The notes under the pieces were generated by a model that had not been told where the DNA came from, did no database searches, and worked only from the letters and a program-made list of their open reading frames with translations. A DNA stretch of 64,000 nt from Lingula anatina (lineage: Eukaryota > Animalia > Brachiopoda): positions 37,764,401 to 37,828,400 of the forward strand of contig CM120641.1 of NCBI GenBank assembly GCA_051362555.1. Reading direction: 5' to 3'. Both the position numbers and the translations under genes were made by a program. Numbering within the stretch: the stretch's first letter is position 1; every line of letters starts with the position of its first letter. Positions 32,801 to 59,140 of the stretch are shown here, in pieces.

Positions 32801-35800
32801 CATTTTAGAAAATGAAACTGGCAGGATTGTTTTAAAAAAATTTATATATCACATGTTCTTTAGTACTCTGAACAAGTTTTTATTGCAATTTTAAGTCGGA
32901 AGTTGTATGTGTTTGGTTTCCCTACCTGCTCAGACTGCAGTTGCAAGAACATGTCATTCTTAGCCTGCAGCAGAGTGACATTTTGCTCTTCAAGTTCCTT
33001 CTTCAGCTTCTCGAGCTTGGCAAGGTCTTCCTTGCACTTCTCAAGTTCCTCTTCCTTCTTCTTCATCTCATCCTCAGCACGGGCAATGTTCAGCAGAGGC
33101 TTCACCTAAACATGACAATGAAGGCAATTTTCAATATCTGGCTTGCAAAAGAAACGATATGCTATAAAGAAAATATTCATCTCTTTAACTAAGCACTTGT
33201 GACAAATCCTCCCACAAATGCAAATTTTGTGCCACTATAATATCATTATCCAGTAACCTACACTAGTTCTAACTTCAAGGCATTTGCACTGTTTCATTTC
33301 TAATGAGTCCTCTTCGTCCCCACTTTCAGTAATATACAGAGGTTCCAGTTCTTGATCATCTACATCGCAATCAACTGATTCTAATATCCAGTCTAGTTCA
33401 GATAATATTGCATCTGTTTGGCAAGACCCCATTGTTTCATAGTTTCTCTCAGTTAACCATCCATGAGTGCTTAATTCGGTCACAGCATATTACATAAGTA
33501 GCAAGATATGCAGCCTTTCAATGAAGCAATGTCTTGATCAGGTAGCCACAATAAAAATACACCTGCAACCTCTCCAAGACAATAAAATAACTTGTAAACA
33601 CTGCAGGGTATTTGTGGAGACTATAAATGAACATCACTTTACTCTACTGTGGAGAAGGCCCGTACTATGGGACCCAGTCTCTCCTATTGACAAAGAAATT
33701 AATGGGGTATATGGCCACTTCCTTTGCCAGCAAATGAGGAACACAAATGGGACTTATCACAGTCAACAAGCTTGTTCAAAGATAACATCTACTCAATCCA
33801 GTCAATAAACAAACCCCTGCAGGTCACCTTGTGTCCAGGTGTGTGGGGAAGTCATTAAGTAAAGCAGTGGAGGAACCTAATTGATAATAAATACTGTCAA
33901 CAAAGGGGCTTGTAAACATGATAGCATTGATGGTAGACAATAAGGTAAATGGGAGGGGATTATGTGGATGTAGATAAACCAGGTATGGACTTGATAAACT
34001 GCCGAGTGAAAGATATTCTTCAGTTGTGCTCTTGAAGAGGGATTGGAATCATTGCTCTTTTTTATTTTATCTTTTTTTCCTTCTTAATTTTAAAGAAGAT
34101 ACTCACTCTGGTGTACAGCTTCCACCACTGCCAGTTGCGGAGCTGCAGGTACTTGCGAATGTTTCTCTGGATGACAGACAGACCAACTCTGAAAAGTGGA
34201 GAAATGTAAAGGTTAATATCAACAAATCTTAAATTTCATTAAATAGATAAATGATTTGAATGAAAAAAAGTATTTCAGTTGATTAATCAATTTTAGTTAA
34301 GTTGTGAACTTGTGTATAGTTATAACAACTTAAAATGTATATATAACACATTAAGTGAAGACTACATGATCCATTCTAATTATTTCCAATATAAACCCCA
34401 CCCCTTCTTACCTCTGGTCTTGCAGTTTCTTGTATTGTTTGCGCATGATGTAGCCACGGATGTGAGCCTGGAACAGGGAGATGATCTTGGAGAGACGCTC
34501 ATCACGGAGATCCTCAAGATGACCTAGGACACCAGCACGGAAGAAGACCTTGGTGCTGCCAAGACGGTACTCATTCTCATCCAACTGCAGAGATTCCAGG
34601 ATCTTCTGGGAGACAAGTTTGCCCTCCACGAAGCCCTGGGGGATGGCATTGGGAGCCAAGATGGAGTATCTGCAAGTGACAAACGGCAGGTAAACTATGG
34701 ATGAATGTCAGGTGTTTTTCTTGTTGATGATACCAAACTATACATTTTGACTTACTTCAAGAATATAACTCAATAAAAATTCATACATCTTGAACATAAA
34801 ACTATATGAAAAACTGTTTCCTGAGATTCTTCCCTACCCACCTCTGCTTGAATTCAGAGTAGATCATCCTGTTGGGGAAACCTTTACGGCAGATACGGAT
34901 ACCCTCAAGTACACCATTACATTGCAGCTGGTTCATCACAAGGAAGGAGTCAATCAGACCTGGAAAAAATCAAATGAACATTTTTTCAATAAGTCTACAA
35001 AAACCACTTTTGGGATAATGACTTGAAGATTAAAAATTAAAAAATACATACTTAAACTTTACACTTGTATTTTGCTTCTTTGTATGAAATATGACAATTA
35101 ACAGATTAAAAAGTACACTGCAATATGTGTGAAAAGAAATAGTAAGAAAAACACATGACACACAACATGCAAAGACAGTTTTCCTTTAAAGTTTCCCAAG
35201 ATCATAATAAAAAGCCAGACTATTCTAACTCTCAAAATCACACATTCTCCACCCTCCCCAAATTTTAAAGCTTCAAGATATGCCTGATAAAATAAATTTT
35301 GACAGGACTAAAGAAAAAAAAAACCGCTCAACTTTTAAAACCACCCATGTTTTATAAAAAGAATAACCTTTCTCCTTATAACTACCAAAATGTAAAATGT
35401 ATGAGATAGTGAGCTAGACTGGTCATCATGCAGCACCTGACCACTGTACAGAATGGTTGGACACATCAAGACACCAGGTAACACAACATCTACTTCTGGT
35501 CACCGATGAATGATGTGTCCAACAGCGGTGGTGGCTGCCCAGTGGTCAGGGATGTTACCTGGTGTCTTGACTTCATTAGGAATAATACACCTGATGAAGT
35601 GCGGCTGAGTGCTGCGTAAGTTGGTCATCAGCTTATTTAAACTCTCCTGTGAGTAGGTAGGTGTGTGGTTGGGTGGGCAGAGGGGGAGACAAAGAGAAAC
35701 ACAAGGTTAGTGTCTAACAACAAGGAAAAAAAGGTAGTTTATGGGTAGAGCCAAATATTAATTAAGTCATGCTGAGCACACATGGGAAAGTACAGCACAG

Positions 35801-38800
35801 GTAGGGCACAAATCTCGTGACAACTGCAACAGAGAAATGAAGGAAAAAAATCACAAACACAGGAAATCTGAAAAATAGACAGAGAACACACAAGTGAAAT
35901 GGATACATCACATCACATCAAAAGAGAAGCCACAATGATCAAGGATAAAGCGCAAAAAAATATGTATTTTGCCCACTTGATTGTTCCATCAAAAAAAGGA
36001 CACCCCAAAATGTAAAGATAATAATTTTTGGTTCTTTCATAATTATCATACATTTAAATGAAGAAAAAAGGGAAGGTAAAACAACTGAATTTTGTTGATT
36101 TGTTCTTTAAATATAATAACAATTTGAAAAATATTTTTCTTTGAAGATTGGTAGTTTCATGAGACAAACTGCTAAATGTCCTGAAAACAGATAGGGAGTG
36201 ATGCATGCTGTTACTACGAAAGGAGAATGGGTGCACAAAAAAGTGAACAAGAATTACAAAAAAAAAAACATCAGTGCACTTCTTGGACACATTTCCATTG
36301 GTGAACCCGCACATATCTGGCATCCCCACGCTGGCAGTGAGGGATAGAGAAACAGAAGAAGTTATACAAGGCATTCAAAACCAGAGAATATCACATCAAC
36401 ACAGTGCATCATCCATGGCAGCAACAGCACACAGTGATTGCAGTCAATGCTGAAGAGAATGGGGTTTGGTGGGGGGTGCAACACTGGGTGGAGCTTTTTA
36501 CCTGGTGTTTTCACCTCGTTGGGGATAATGCAACGGATGAAATGAGGCTGAGTGGTACCCAAGTTGATCATCAATTTGTTCAAGCTTTCCTGTAATCACA
36601 ATATCTCACGTTAGTTATATAGTTAGGGAAAAAAACGCTGCAAGGGAATGAAGGCTGAAATGTGAAATAAACATAGGCTAATAGTGGATAAATATTAGCA
36701 TGCTTTCATTTCATTGATAATCAAATCAACCTCCTTTCAAAATTTTTGTGGGAGTTGGCTATTGCTACATTTGTATCTTTACATTTGATTTCTGCAGATA
36801 CATGTATTTCAACAATCATAAGATAAATGCTAATATATCGACTGTCTGATTTCAACTAAATATACTAATTTGCTTTCATTTGAACCGCTCCTTCCCATTA
36901 TTCCTAACTGCCATGTCTAACAACTTTTCAATATTTTTTTCTTTTTCAAACTAGAATATGACCAGATTCTTACCCTGTGAGTGGCAGAGATGGTGTGGAA
37001 AGCGCTACCCTTCTTCTTCTTCTTTGGTGCAGCGCCCTCTGCAAATAGCACATTTTATCAAAATTATAAAAACTCATGAATAAATACCATAACTCAAGCT
37101 GAATTGATGAAATATAGAACAAATGAGTCTTATCACTGAATAAATTTATACAATTTAACTTCTGGATGTGAAACCATATGCTACTTACCCCATCTTTAAA
37201 GCAGTAAAAGTAAATCTTTTCTAGAACATGTATTTCTGTTTAATATTTTAGTTATGAAAAAAAGAAAATGTTATATATCTAAGAGCCTACAATAAGCTAA
37301 ATTATGATCAACTACATCTAAGTTACTGCTTGAAATTATATCAAATGAAAATCAGATCTTAAATTATAGAAGCTGACGAAAATTAGACAGAACAGAACAA
37401 GACAAGCTTTCTAGATGATTACATAACATGAATAGAACAAAACAAAACAGAACAGACATATGTTGTACAAAAATGGATACATCAGACAGATATGGAGGAA
37501 AATGTGGTATGAAGGTGAAGGTTGTAGAAGGTGAATGTATGTGGTGAGCAAGTCTGGGAGCAAGGGAGAGGCAGACGACATCCCTGGTGTACAGGATCTG
37601 AAATATAAACTGGAACAGGCGTGAAGGAGATTGGAAAAAAGGAGAGGAGTTGGAGATAAAATGGAATACTCTTGTGGATGGAATAAAGTGACAAAAGGGA
37701 AAAAAACAATGGAAGGAACAATAAGGAAAGCTGCAAAGAAAATGATATATTTGAAGACTTTTTAAAACCACATGGTAGAACTGAAAGTTGAACCTTACTG
37801 GAATAGGAGAGGTGATGGGAAATTTAGGTAGTAGGAATTTCACACATTAGTGGATCTAGAATCCACTGTCTTGGATAGAAATGTGGTAGGTGAAAGTCAC
37901 ATTTTAACAGGATACATGGATCTTGAGGGAGGTTTTGGTGAATGGGTTAAACCTGTGAATCATGGGTACAGTGTTCTTTCCCTTTAGCTCTGAGTGTTGG
38001 TTTTGATAGACAAGTTTTAAAAATAAAAAGTATTTTGTATTGCATGAAGCCTACTAAAATCATAAAAATAATTCCCTTTTTCTTTCCTTTGTTTTTGATA
38101 AATAAATCATCATAAGCTGAATAGCAAATTATACACATTAGTTAAATTGAAAAAAAAATTCAATGTTTAATAAATAATGAAACAAAAAAGGCATTCCAAA
38201 AGTTGCAAGCTGCTATAGCCATTGCTGCTGTCACTGATATTGTTTCCATGCCCCTTACTGTTACCTTCATCATCATCTATTCCAGCAAACAATTGTGCAA
38301 CAGTAGGATCTTTGGATTTGCTGAGGACATGGTAACAAGTAACATTCACTGGATCTTTGTTCTTTTCCAACCACCCACAAATGTTGTAGGGCACCTAACA
38401 GCCACCATAGAATTTTATCATTACATGATTTCACAGAAATCTGATGAACAAACTAGTCTCACTGATAGCTTAGCTTTAAAATGCTGTTTCCAAGTATTCC
38501 ATTCTTTTTGAATTATAAAAGTTGACAGTAAACACAAATTTCACTGTACCCATAGTAATAAGCTGTAAAACAAAGAGGAATCAAGGTTGAATTTCAAACT
38601 AACTACATAAATGGTAATGCAGTCTGGTGTGGAAAAAGGAAGATGTACAGGAGGAAAATTCCGCTTTCCATCATGGTGGATTAGGTTAGGGTTGATCACG
38701 GGATAGTGCCTTCTTACCAGGCTCCTCTGGTTCAGAGAACAAGAATGCAACAAGATGCTCCTTGGAAGAGGCAAGGAGACCAATTACGGTTTCATTCAAT

Positions 38801-41800
38801 GGATCCTTGTTCTTTTCCAGCCAGTTGGTAATATTGTAAGCCACCTGATTGTGAGAAACAAAGCATGTCAATAATGCCACTGTATATTGTGTACAAATTT
38901 AAGTGCTCCTCATTTGTGTTTTGCATGATGAGGGCCAGATATTTTGTGCCTCCAGGGCTTAAAAAGGTAAATGCAAAAAAAAAAAATAACTTGGTGAACA
39001 AGTTATACCCATGGGTCTGGTCAGCAAAAAGTACCTGGAATATAATGTGTGGAGATGAGTCCCAAGTCAAGGGATGAAACAAATGAAAGATGAATAGGAG
39101 TGTGTTCAACATACAACAGATGGAAGTTTTACCTCCGCCTTCAGGCTCAGCAAACAGCGTTTGTACAAGAGGTTCTTTTGCTTCTTGGAGAAGAGAGACA
39201 ACAGTGTCATTCACTGGATCTTTGTTCTTTTCCAGCCAATTGCAGATGTTGTAAGGCACCTGATGTAACAGCAACAAACTCAGGTTTCTAAGGAAGTTCA
39301 TTAGAAATACAGCTGCACACAAAACCGAAATACAAAACACAGGAGAACATGAAGATAAAAAGAAGACTGCTGAAATTTGTATTAAACTTTGCTTGCCAAC
39401 ATGCCTTTAAATTTGTACAAAATATGTTACAGTATTACAGTTTCCTCACTGGCATGGTGGGTTTAGAATTATGTCAAATTTACACAAAAGCAAATATAAG
39501 CAAGCAAAGTTTTCGAAGTTAAAATCTCTAAAATCTATAAAGTCAAATAATTAACCAAGGAAAAATACAACACCACTAGATGGTAAATTCTACCTCTAGC
39601 TGTAATCAACTAATCTTTGATTGGTTCTCATATTCTTATTTTAAAAGGCCGAGAGAAAACAAAAAGCAACATCATCAAAAAGAGCAGATTTCAAATCAGA
39701 ATAGTCAAATCACTGACAACAAGGTTTATGTGTATTCCTCTACAGCTAGTACATGTATGATTAGCTGAAATAAATTACAAATGTTATCAGTTATTGGTGA
39801 AGTGATCATCTTCTCTAGACAGTGGTAGTAGTAGTAGTAGGTTACTGCATCTATGTCCTGCTACCTAATATCCCAGAGATTACCTTCCTCATTGGCACCT
39901 GAGATAAAGACATGTGATATGATATGGTCCTTGCTTCTACTTAGAAGTTCAATACAGCCCTCATTGAGGGGGTCTCTGTTCTTTTCTACCCAGCCTTGGA
40001 TACTGTATGGTACCTGAGGGCATCACAAAAGCATGCATGCACACACACACACAATGGCACCATGTAGCAATTCTTTAAATCCCCAATGGTCTGAATTAAA
40101 TTCCAAAAGTGTCCTAGAGTCTTCAAGTTTTTTAATGATATGTCTTAATTAAATACTAGTATTAGTTACCAGTCCTCTGAAACATTTCAAAACAACATCA
40201 TTTAAGTGTTTTGAGGTTTTCTGTTTATAAAAAATTCAAAATAAATTTTTTTTTAATGGATATACAAGTACTTTGAAAAAAAAAAAAAAAAAAAACAAGA
40301 GTATCAACTTACAGCACCAGCATAATGGTACAACTCAAAGTGGGCCTCGTGCTTCCTGTCCTTGGATGGCTTGGGTTTGCCAAAGTTTGGAGACTTGCCC
40401 ATGTGGTTGTTGTACAGCTTGTCCTTGAAGGTGTCATCAGAGGCCTTGGGGAACATGCACTCTTCCTCAAGGATGGACAAGATACCCATGGGCTAGAAAG
40501 GAGAGAAAAGGGAAAAACGTTGAAGAGCCAATGCTTCAGACCATACTTATCAACAAATGCATGCTGTTTTTCATATTTCACAACAATAGATTGCTAAGAA
40601 CTGCTTTGATCAATTTTCTCAAGTTATAACTATGTAGTACAATTTATGATAAAACTCACCTTCTCAATAAGGTCGATACAGGCCTGCAAGTCCATACCGA
40701 AGTCAATGAACTGCCAGACAATACCTTCCTTCTTGTACTCTTCCTGCTCCAGTACAAACATGTGGTGGTTGAAGAACTGCTGCAATCTCTCATTGGTGTA
40801 GTTGATGCACAACTGCTCAAAGGTGTTGAACTGAAAACCAAGGAGTTGCAGAATGAGAAAGATAAAACAAAGTTGTCCTTCGATTGAATTTAGCTGTTTA
40901 ATGAGAGTACGTAAGTTGATTGTGAAAAGTAAATAAATAATTAGCTCTCAGTAGAAATCAAAACACACATGAATGCAATTGCCAGTTATAATGATACTAT
41001 TCAAAAGTTGAACTTGTCAATTTACCTCAAAGATCTCAAAACCAGCAATATCCAGTACACCAATGAAGTACTGTCTCTTGTTCTTTGTATCAAGAGTCTT
41101 GTTGACACGCTGGACGAGCCACTTGAACATACGATCATACAGAGACTTGGACAGGGCACCCACGGCATATAAGACCTATAAGTTATAACAGTAGCAAGTC
41201 AATAAAGTGTTGTCAGCGGGGAAAATCAAAGCAATCGTGCCATGCATCATGTAAAAATCTTATAAATATGGAAAATTTACATGCGCTATCAAGTTTGAAA
41301 AGTCTGGAAATTCATAATAACAAAATTTAGCTTTGTTGGCATCATGCTTATGAACTTAATGATTCTTATTTTCATTACAGCTTTCTGCATGCTTTTAAAC
41401 ATATATAATCCAAATTTAGTTTATATGAAAATATTGCATTTTAAAATCGTACTTTTACAAGCAGCAAAGAAATAGAATGACACACAAAGATGCTGAGGAA
41501 GATGTTCAAAGGAAAGGTTAGTGACACAGGTGACTGTATAGCCTTCTATACCCAACAGTTGAAAGGTAGAGTGACAAAATTGTGGTAAGGAAAACTCTGA
41601 AAGGAAAAGGTGGGATAAAACACCAAACCTGACTTTGACTAAAATAAGGAATGGTAAAATATGATGAGGTGAGGTGAAAAATATACTTCTTCCTGGTAAA
41701 GTATGGAGTACAGGTTAAGGTATGATTAACAATGTGGGAGCTTTGAGTTTAACAATTTTGACAATAGGAAAAGTGAAATGGTGAATTCATAAATATACTG

Positions 41801-56800: not shown

Positions 56801-59140
56801 CTCTTACAAAAACATCCTCTACATGTTTGATCCTATGCAATCAAAATTTGGATAGCAATGATATATTTAGTTGGGGCATCAAAAGTTCACTGTGTAAGCT
56901 TTAAAGAAGAAACCAGAAACTGCAGCTCTATCCTTAAAGCTTGGGAATAAAAGTCATATGGCTTATCTTTCATATAAAAATCAAAATTTGTCTTTAACTC
57001 AGATGTTCTCTGTTAATTAAGCTAACCCGAGCTGGTCAGAAAGGCTTCAAATGCATTTATACTTGCTCTAGTCAGTTTTACTTTTAAAACCAGATAAACA
57101 ATGGCTTAATGGTTGTCTATTAAATTCTCTCTGTGCAAGAGAACAATGATAATGTGTACAAAGGATACTGATCAAAACCACAAGAAAGGGGAAGTAAACA
57201 CAAGTGACTTGACTGGAGGTAAATAAAGGAAATCTACTCAGGTATAATCTACATAATGGCAATATAAATCAACTAAATATGATGTATAATAACATAATAT
57301 TTGTTTGATCCACATATAACTGAGGTGCCAACATGATCATAAGGAGGGCGGGCTAAGTAGGTTGAGGGGTCTCTTTAACTTGGAAACTGACCATGAAAAA
57401 GGGCCAGGTTTCCAAGCTAAAGAAGAGTGTACTTTTCATCAGAAGGTGGGAATATTACAAATGTGCATTTTATCCACATCTCCTGTGCATCCTTCATGCT
57501 TGAAATGATCCAGTACCCGGGTTGGTGCACTAGGTATAGTAGGTTCAAATAAAATCACTCCAGGTGAGAATTCCTATTCCTGGGAAAAAACTTCAGTTTC
57601 TTTTTTGGAATTGGGGTTTTTCTTACTTACGTAAATGAGAGTTGCATAATATCTTGCTTTCAAATTGTACAAAACTGAGGCATCATTTAAATAGGTCAAG
57701 TTGGCAATATCCTCATATTTTTCAAACTTTGGTGGATTCATTTGTTGAATATCATCTTTCTTAACTGTGACGATCTGTAATGTAATGCAAAATAAACGTT
57801 ACAACTCATAATGAATAAAAAATTTAATGAAATATTTGTTTGATACTTACATAGATCAAGTTTGAATAGTATCTATCTTTCAGGTTCCATAACACACTGG
57901 CATCATTTAAATAAGTTAGATCTGCCATGTCCTCACATTTTGTGAATTTGGGAGGGTTCATTTGTTGAATGTCATCTTTCTTCACTGTAACAATCTTTGA
58001 AATCAAGAAAATAATGTGTCAATTCCACGTATCTAAAAAAAAATTTATCACAACTAATATGACGTGTGGATACATGTATAACTAATTTATATAGTAACTA
58101 TCTTGGACAAAAAATGGAAAAAAAACTTTAATTTTATCTAAATAATAAATGAGGCAGCAAAAATCTAATCAGATACATTTTCAGCTTTAAAACACAATAA
58201 CAACCCTGTCAACGCCAAAAGCACCTTTATCTAAAAAATGACAATCTATATTTTCTTTCATTCATACATGTGTATGGAAAAATGTGTATGAAAAAAAAAA
58301 CTTTCATTTTATCTAAATAATAAATGGGCCAGCAAAAATCTTATCAGATACATTTTTCAGCTTTAAAACACAATAACAACCCTGTCAACGCCAAAAGCAC
58401 CTTTATCTAAAAAATGACAATCTATTTTTTCTTTCATTCATACATGTGTACAGGGTACCTACCCAGCATCTGCAAATTGGTGGTCTAAAAACAATACAGT
58501 TACATAAAACAATGCATCCCTCAACAAAATTAGATGCTGTTAAAATATCTCATTTGCTACATAAATTTTCAGACACTTGAAGTTGGAAATATGTTGTCTT
58601 TTCTTTCATTTTAAAACCTTGTTTTTCACAACATAGTGACATTTTTTCCAATGCACTTATCTTCATCTGAGAGAATAAATAAATTTCCATAACCATTTTT
58701 TTTTTTTTTTTTTTTTTGTCAGTATGGACTGAGAAAAACAGAAAACAGAAATTTAAGGAGAACTGCCTATTAATTCTACACCATGTTGCTGATGGTTTTT
58801 CATAGCCAATAAGCTAGTTTCTGACATCCTCACAATCAAAATTTCAGAACAAATGTATAGGCAAATTGCAATTGTCACTTTCAATATAATATCATATTAT
58901 GTATCGAATTATACAGGCTTAAATTAAAATAAAAAGATTGCTACTCACGTTGCCGTCATTCAGTCTTACAGTTACTTCATCCCCTTTAGTGCTCTGGATT
59001 TCGGCTGCCATGAAACCCTCCTTTTGGTGGGGCACCCAGCAGTTCTTCTTACCGTCAAACGGCTGGGTCTGTTCCTTCTGCAGAGCCTTCTTGTCGATGG
59101 CCAGATATTTCATATCTGGATCATTCGGATCGTACGACAT
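18636..59140 (-). CDS. Mhc: Striated-muscle myosin II heavy chain, ~1,950-1,990 aa per isoform, 38 coding exon positions with extensive alternative exons
   Basis: Constitutive exons (-): 59140-58949, 48278-48251, 45516-45453, 43291-43188, 43042-42904, 41175-41026 (DIAGFE switch II), 40830-40660 (relay), 40492-40313, 37038-36974 (loop 2), 34959-34842 (SH1), 34669-34412 (converter/IQ), 34188-34107 (WQWWKL), 33105-32926, 32705-32502, 32285-32076, 31825-31680, 31516-31426, 28085-28029, 27453-27367, 26318-26152, 24872-24627, 24347-24151, 23904-23555, 23399-22966, 22799-22671, 22513-22142, 21966-21766, 21524-21360. P-loop GESGAGKT and switch I NNNSSRF lie in alternative exons. One full path sums to 5943 nt in frame. 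Confidence 0.97.
25166..25633 (-). CDS. Mhc: Mhc mutually exclusive exon pair, S2/LMM rod hinge
   Basis: Two 79-nt exons with identical phases: 25633-25555 [26 protein letters not shown] and 25244-25166 [26 protein letters not shown]. Confidence 0.9.
28298..28780 (-). CDS. Catchin/myorod-type internal alternative first exon (161-aa unique Ser/Thr/Lys-rich N-terminus fused to the distal rod)
   Basis: Open frame from ATG 28780 ([12 protein letters not shown]...APGLKNMLE) to a GTAATG donor at phase 0, matching the next exon [14 protein letters not shown] (28085). Size and position fit molluscan catchin. Confidence 0.85.
33262..33432 (-). CDS. Candidate second internal first exon of Mhc (57 aa, acidic), would yield a full-rod headless myosin
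   Basis: [57 protein letters not shown], then a GTAGGT donor at phase 0, in frame with the VKPLL exon at 33105. No transcript evidence. Confidence 0.5.
35559..36589 (-). CDS. Mhc: Mhc mutually exclusive exon pair following loop 2
   Basis: 88-nt exons 36589-36502 [29 protein letters not shown] and 35646-35559 [29 protein letters not shown]. Confidence 0.92.
38265..40013 (-). CDS. Mhc: Mhc cluster of four mutually exclusive exons leading into loop 2
   Basis: 40013-39884 [20 protein letters not shown]..., 39259-39133 [20 protein letters not shown]..., 38844-38718 [20 protein letters not shown]..., 38394-38265 [20 protein letters not shown]... Lengths are 130/127/127/130 nt, all phase 0 to 1. 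Confidence 0.92.
42140..42499 (-). CDS. Mhc: Mhc mutually exclusive exon pair (cardiomyopathy-loop region)
   Basis: 119-nt exons 42499-42381 [40 protein letters not shown] and 42258-42140 ...[27 protein letters not shown]. Confidence 0.93.
44031..44567 (-). CDS. Mhc: Mhc cluster of three mutually exclusive exons (LLEKSRV region; Drosophila exon-7 equivalent)
   Basis: 99-nt exons 44567-44469 (..[20 protein letters not shown]..), 44304-44206 (..[20 protein letters not shown]..), 44129-44031 (..[20 protein letters not shown]..). Confidence 0.93.
46262..46741 (-). CDS. Mhc: Mhc mutually exclusive exon pair (switch I)
   Basis: 46741-46649 [31 protein letters not shown] (93 nt) and 46357-46262 [32 protein letters not shown] (96 nt). 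Confidence 0.93.
47578..48030 (-). CDS. Mhc: Mhc mutually exclusive exon pair (P-loop + loop 1)
   Basis: 48030-47928 [34 protein letters not shown] (103 nt) and 47698-47578 [40 protein letters not shown] (121 nt). Confidence 0.93.
48784..52938 (-). CDS. Mhc: Mhc cluster of six mutually exclusive 157-nt exons (TYSGLF..NPY..PPH region)
   Basis: 52938-52782, 52203-52047, 51458-51302, 50821-50665, 49883-49727, 48940-48784. All are exactly 157 nt, stop-free, AG/GT flanked, phase 0 to 1. Confidence 0.95.
56260..56450. promoter_or_regulatory. Candidate intronic muscle enhancer in Mhc
   Basis: Perfect CArG box CCTTTTATGG (56398-56407), CACCTG E-boxes (~56326, ~56380) and an A/T-rich ctatttatat element in a locally GC-richer island. 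Motif evidence only. Confidence 0.4.
57631..57994 (-). CDS. Mhc: Mhc mutually exclusive exon pair (N-terminal; Drosophila exon-3 equivalent)
   Basis: 144-nt exons 57994-57851 [48 protein letters not shown] and 57774-57631 [48 protein letters not shown]. Confidence 0.94.
58120..58450. repeat. Recent direct tandem duplication (~175-bp period) in the first coding intron of Mhc
   Basis: 'ttttatctaaataataaatg..cagcaaaaatc..ccctgtcaacgccaaaagcacc..catacatgtgta' occurs twice (~58120-58273 and ~58295-58450) with few differences. Confidence 0.93.

Follow-up and report, generated by a model that had tools for sequence, protein, structure and literature searches.

The 64,000-nt window analysed here, from Lingula anatina, contains a muscle myosin heavy chain gene. 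A tblastn search with a nemertean myosin query places it on the minus strand between about 59.1 and 21.3 kb. The best protein matches of one of its exons are nemertean and bivalve myosins (85-87%), and scallop and squid-type myosin structures head the PDB list for the locus. The named proteins, from gastropods, bivalves, and a nemertean, are about equally distant from the gene, the best reaching 71% over 15 exons, one of them mis-framed. Sequence comparison assigns the gene to the muscle myosin heavy chains of lophotrochozoans, with no named group clearly nearest.

The tblastn mapping shows many duplicated exons across the gene, which, judged by the text of published descriptions, ranks among the Mhc genes with the most exon duplication. 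At 52944-48789 (minus strand), a 158-nt motor exon (TYSGLFC...) is repeated six times in tandem, a candidate cluster of unusual size. The exon before loop 2 is present in four copies at 40013-38265 (minus strand); three of the four have junction reads, their use is strongly sample-dependent, and the PMC3912159 text consulted does not describe the cluster. Candidate intron pairings flank these copies (38884-38902 with 39407-39425, 19 nt, 95%), and further candidates there are 37961-37973 with 38542-38554 and 39384-39397 with 39499-39512. Other duplicated exons have two copies at 57997-57631, 48038-47584, 46741-46262, and 42506-42137, and three at 44565-44053. A tail intron carries a 198-aa low-complexity open frame with an ATG near its start (28798-28202, minus strand), which may be a catchin-type alternative first exon (cf. 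PMC3912159), and an early intron contains a near-identical 175-nt tandem repeat at 58118-58450.

Exons 9A and 9B (Table 1) have equal length and phase and are 77% identical; 26 of the 29 encoded residues are the same and three differ. The pair is placed right after the loop-2 exon, which agrees with the text description of Mhc cluster-9 (Kollmar and Hatje 2014, PMC3912159), a duplicated exon in that position whose product is one strand of the central sheet of the motor. Cluster-9 is reported there in arthropods and lophotrochozoans; the cluster number used here is tentative, being taken from the text of that paper. As described in that text, cluster-9 shares position and duplication with 9A and 9B, and RNA structure is not part of the description.

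Table 1. Exons and pairing elements of the 9A/9B region (window positions)
Feature	Position	Strand	Description	Basis
Upstream shared exon	36974..37038	-	Shared exon upstream of the pair (end of loop 2)	tblastn, junction reads
Exon 9A	36502..36589	-	88 nt; upstream exon of the mutually exclusive pair, the major form	junction reads, translation
D:D'	36202..36433	-	16-bp helix enclosing S (36433-36418 with 36217-36202); GCAUG in D'	
S	36276..36308	-	Weak candidate for a long-range selector, within the 9A-9B intron; complement of C+A*	borderline significance
Exon 9B	35559..35646	-	88 nt; downstream and minor member of the pair	junction reads, translation
A	35553..35570	-	Final 12 nt of 9B and donor +1..+6	sequence
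B	35540..35550	-	Outer 5' arm of the ON hairpin	sequence, folding
C	35511..35523	-	Middle 5' arm; predicted toehold (putative role)	sequence, folding
A*	35497..35510	-	Decoy, a degenerate donor-region copy; partner of A' in the ON hairpin	folding
A'	35466..35483	-	18-nt anti-donor; partner of A (OFF) or A* (ON)	sequence, folding
C'	35456..35468	-	Partner of C, directly contiguous with A'	sequence
B'	35436..35446	-	Partner of B; arm transcribed last	sequence, folding
UGCAUG	35427..35432	-	Motif; in the model partly paired with exon bases 35615-35608	sequence
Downstream shared exon	34842..34959	-	Shared exon downstream of the pair	tblastn, junction reads

Exon 9B is a minor, sample-dependent choice. 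Junctions were counted in raw RNA reads, with 6-25% of each run sampled. On the donor side, run X16 has 8 junctions for 9B and 5892 for 9A (8/5900; 0.14% 9B), X19 has 42 and 202 (42/244; 17%), X18 has 36 and 129 (36/165; 22%), and X13, with 24 reads at the locus, has 0 and 2. Acceptor-side 9B:9A counts agree at 7:2754, 51:136, and 14:73 for X16, X19, and X18. The use of 9B thus spreads more than 100-fold between samples, and X16 and X18 carry one study code. The two exons are near mutually exclusive and each single-inclusion form is present in the reads. A 9A-9B junction occurs in four reads, all from X19, and a junction skipping both exons is absent among the 15 of 18 junctions listed. Steric hindrance by a too-short intron is rejected, as the 9A-9B intron is 855 nt long and is excised in these four reads. 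Since both exons are 88 nt long, inclusion of both or of neither shifts the frame. Decay hides such products for 14 of 19 clusters of non-3n exons in C. elegans (PMC4165533), and nonsense-mediated decay could likewise mask those of 9A and 9B.

The intron after 9B contains several complementary segments. An earlier note on this DNA had claimed an 18-nt anti-donor, two further perfect pairs, and a UGCAUG beyond them, all of which are found: A and A' are complementary at 18/18 Watson-Crick positions, B:B' and C:C' at 11/11 and 13/13, and TGCATG is present beyond B'. A:A' is extendable to 20 bp with a terminal G-U at either end (-33.6 kcal/mol); A' occurs once in the 64-kb window, and A:A' is the longest of its 20 perfect inverted repeats of at least 11 nt within 300 nt. 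When the intron was shuffled 5000 times (mononucleotide), perfect pairing over the donor never exceeded 11 pairs. Among 51 donors of the gene, script-picked near tblastn ends and possibly misplaced in some cases, the best duplex over the 9B donor has -33.3 kcal/mol and the next -20.6, while the longest perfect helix across the GT is 18 at 9B and at most 8 at the others. The fold of the element has a z of -3.9, with 0/200 shuffles as stable, and 4 of the 12 strongest helices, from 791 in the 38-kb gene, fall in the 1.1-kb 9A/9B cluster. G-U pairs favour the pre-mRNA strand, with a fold z of -5.1 against -3.2 on the opposite strand and a C+A*:C'A' energy of -34.8 against -26.9. The three pairings and the UGCAUG are therefore real and far beyond chance, and none of the other donors among the 51 is similar. 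The three perfect helices lie in crossing order, so they do not come from one inverted duplication. Rfam gives 0 matches up to E 1 across 34900-37100; a metabolite riboswitch was considered and rejected, as this search yields no known aptamer.

The minimum-energy fold is one long hairpin in which B:B' is followed by a short extension with bulges, then by C:C' and an innermost A*:A' helix. A*, which the earlier note had missed, sits directly after C. Because A* pairs with A' within the hairpin, A' can take either of two partners: the true donor or this decoy. Both of the crossing alternative folds proposed previously are present in the model, and with the entire exon in the folded sequence their energies are similar, the ensemble being 79% hairpin (B+C) and 21% A:A'. 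In short folding windows the hairpin is ahead by 6-8 kcal/mol, the balance being dependent on the folding window. With the allele of the 64-kb window, the ON hairpin is favoured at equilibrium in every folding window; the hairpin to A:A' ratio is 58:42 with the X7 allele and 25:75 with the X10 allele. The proposal that the donor is free in the B+C fold holds in part, as the donor is only about half unpaired there (0.4-0.6). In global folds of 0.9-1.3 kb, only B:B', C:C', and D:D' are stable between folding windows, and temperatures of 10-37 C scarcely change the balance between hairpin and A:A'.

Folding order gives a different ranking in the co-transcriptional series. With a growing 3' end, P(A:A') is 0.95-1.0 for ends at 35473-35440 and then 0-0.2, and A:A' yields only once B' is complete. 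Direct refolding faces a barrier of about 29 kcal/mol, a maximum value computed with pseudoknots ignored. In the fold model, B:B' brings UGCAUG, an Rbfox-type motif (PMC4165533), adjacent to the 9B donor. When UGCAUG is forced to be unpaired, P(A:A') falls from 0.20-0.21 to 0.001-0.022 in four of five folding windows, and shows a small effect in the fifth (0.29 to 0.21).

These features are probably functional. The preferred reading, given slightly better than even odds (about 55%), is that the 130 nt after 9B form an RNA latch that keeps the 9B donor off by default. On this reading, A' would pair with the donor before anything else and hide it, and A:A' is predicted to dominate from the transcription of A' (+85) until B' is complete (+120). 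In the predicted ON state, B:B', C:C', and A*:A' would form a hairpin that locks A' and frees the donor; this hairpin would set UGCAUG beside the donor, and an unpaired UGCAUG would tip the ensemble to ON. C:C' could be the toehold because C' follows A' without a gap, and A* would then displace A by strand exchange. In tissues that use 9B, an Rbfox-type protein or early capture by U1 may aid the displacement. The latch model needs kinetic trapping, because the ON hairpin is favoured at equilibrium, yet 9B is minor. Nonsense-mediated decay would remove the double- and zero-inclusion products of the 88-nt exons. On this model, the latch likely helps to keep 9B minor and sample-dependent.

The same hairpin may act as a static structure alone, that is, as an RNA bridge bringing UGCAUG to the 9B donor, with A' a by-product and A:A' transient at most. 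Being the minimum-energy fold in every folding window, the hairpin is compatible with this, and Rbfox RNA bridges are known, with beta-tropomyosin 6B noted in PMC9198270. A static bridge would, however, be expected to have A' matched to A* and not to A, whereas A' matches the donor at 18/18 positions and A* partially (-33.6 vs -13.2 kcal/mol). This explanation is accordingly regarded as unlikely, though it deserves a real share of the weight.

Comparative data bear on the origin of the element. The region is covered by a contig from run X10 with 62 differences over 1651 nt, representing a lineage about 4% diverged. Of the 69 intronic arm bases none is substituted, against 3 of the 63 non-arm bases of the element, among 40 listed substitutions; the list is taken as complete up to 36124, as the 40 rows are all from X10 and in position order. 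The conservation of the arms, in this one contig, has a p of 0.052 against local introns and 0.11 within the element. Conservation is as high in the intron upstream of 9B (3 in 314 nt), which points to constraint near the exon and not to pairing as such. One of the three non-arm changes, C>T on the + strand at 35504 and shared with X7, keeps A*:A' through a bulge shift (-13.2 to -11.7). Read depth in X10 indicates no deletion in 35442-35609, with insertions possible, and no compensatory double change occurs among its listed substitutions. The substitutions listed do not extend to S and D:D', and for X7 they include 3 of its 9 differences in that part. Contigs from X2 reached 36260-36700 only, and those from X12, at 80% likeness, are without coverage of the element. 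Runs X19, X13, and X10 have fixed differences from the window under one species label, which suggests divergent lineages.

Among 28 metagenome loci, L006 and L015 have two cluster-9 exons and L002 has an exon of the second type. The anti-donor is absent at these three loci, whose introns are unalignable, and the C..C' pattern is found at 0 of the 28. Going by these distant cluster-9 loci, which are without it, the element is lineage-restricted or unalignable.

Replication template switching yields perfect inverted copies. The arms may thus be neutral inverted micro-duplications of this kind without a splicing role, proteins setting the exon choice and decay cleaning up. The cores are perfect Watson-Crick pairs, A' matches synonymous bases specific to 9B, distant orthologues are without the element, and exons of 88 nt let decay enforce exclusivity (PMC4165533). 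On the other hand, at least two or three events would be needed in one 130-nt spot, exactly on the alternative donor, the arms are without substitution in the X10 lineage, and the pairing has a G-U strand asymmetry. Neutrality is also unlikely for a 20-bp duplex that covers a donor in use. A neutral origin is considered quite improbable, and the latch on the 9B donor is retained as the preferred reading.

The proposed latch would concern 9B only. The earlier note had proposed a toggle choosing between both donors, from an 11-nt match of A' to the donor of 9A. The match is present (11 bp at 36508-36498), but the toggle is rejected because A' is locked in the hairpin in the very state where 9A would need repressing, and because A' carries 9B-specific bases and its match to 9A follows from exon paralogy. 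On the 9A donor A' reaches -16.6 over 11 nt, or -21.8 when extended; 9B is paired about 12-17 kcal/mol better. As A' is locked when the 9B donor is freed, 9A needs to be repressed by separate means, and the element would leave the silencing of 9A unexplained. The GCAUG motifs at 36703, 36208, and 35772 are candidate sites for repressing 9A; the motif is common in the gene, with 54 occurrences in 38 kb. Upstream of the second cluster-9 exon, L006 (4802-5234) and L002 (85-600) have four GCATG each, about 3-4 times the locus background, which hints at shared Rbfox-type control.

A long-range partner could extend the latch. Within the upstream 1.4 kb, C+A* has no better partner than S (-32.6; runner-up -24.2), which covers exactly both segments that hold A'. 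In a docking-site/selector system coupled to the latch, S would pair with C+A*, so that 9B is looped out and A' set free to reach the 9B donor, a geometry like the downstream docking sites of insect Mhc and 14-3-3 (PMC6071210, PMC4691838). Against this, S is the best of five segments tried, and it is matched or beaten by 2/300 and 8/300 shuffles and by 4/72 real windows. Opening S, which lies within the D:D' domain, costs 18.6 kcal/mol and leaves -65.3 vs -72.0 for ON, and its pairing is without strand asymmetry. The X7/X10 allele at 35504 weakens the pairing to -29.0, and P(S:C) is 0.00 in global folds, which cannot hold S:C and A:A' together. D:D' is the second-strongest of the 791 gene helices and is strongly strand-asymmetric (-30.7 vs -16.8), while the 9A intron segment overall is not unusually stable (z -1.1). 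The coupled selector is thus rated as very doubtful.

Intronic complements over an exon end and its donor also occur in A-to-I editing, and A' has the same geometry as the editing-complementary sequence of the GluA2 R/G site (PMC3553983). Such a role in editing the end of 9B is highly improbable, as 20 bp is short and no difference is listed in 35546-35736 in four RNA runs (depth about 17-31 in two; at least 3 reads off read ends required).

In its fullest form, the latch on the 9B donor would amount to strand displacement from a toehold, used as a natural switch by an animal pre-mRNA. Its kinetic trap would be made up of the anti-donor, the decoy, and two clamps; an Rbfox-type protein would resolve it, and an upstream selector would capture the decoy and lock 9B off, so picking motor isoforms by tissue. 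This complete scheme is put forward tentatively, with the odds well against it. The element, with 135 nt, discrete arms, and a measurable output (0.14-22% inclusion), offers an unusually clean test of co-transcriptional kinetic trapping as a means of setting isoform ratios. The effect on the protein is small (three residues), which limits the physiological reach.

Competing RNA structures at exon pairs are documented chiefly in insects and in few human genes. In human ATE1, competing R1R3 and R3R4 pairings hinder splice sites of the exon pair 7a/7b (PMC7797038). The 9B element resembles ATE1 in having an exon pair, one strand with two competing partners, and, as predicted, splice-site hindrance and sensitivity to the timing of transcription. 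In contrast, the hindered site in ATE1 is one of two 3' splice sites and the outcome is enforced exclusivity (PMC7797038), whereas the 9B element concerns only the 5' splice site of the second exon, has all arms within 135 nt, and is known from sequence and folding.

Stems that mask donors are present in MAPT exon 10, SMN2 exon 7, and MALT1 exon 7 (PMC11802352, PMC7404189, PMC9348792). As in these, pairing over the 9B donor is predicted to block U1, and in MALT1 the opening is protein-assisted. They are cassette exons, while the 9B element has a 20-bp duplex, a dedicated decoy, two clamps, and a crossing fold. The fungal TPP riboswitch of NMT1 occludes or releases a 5' splice site by alternative folding (PMC7404189, PMC3597705); the 9B element would share this donor occlusion but is without an aptamer, given the empty Rfam search.

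The insect Dscam, 14-3-3, and Mhc clusters use docking-site/selector pairing (PMC6071210, PMC4691838, PMC12962786). Competing helices at a tandem-exon cluster are common to both, and C+A*, being located after the last exon, has the position of a downstream docking site. Here the strong helices involve the donor itself, unlike in the insect systems, and the sole selector candidate, S, is borderline. The earlier note had set the element apart from docking systems; that distance from known systems was overstated, as ATE1 competes similarly and a weak S exists. Searches of the open-licence literature yielded no such case for lophotrochozoan myosin and no donor/decoy/anti-donor design at an exon pair. 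On the folding model, the element would work like known competing structures that mask splice sites, from which its near-perfect anti-donor, decoy, and compact clamps would set it apart.
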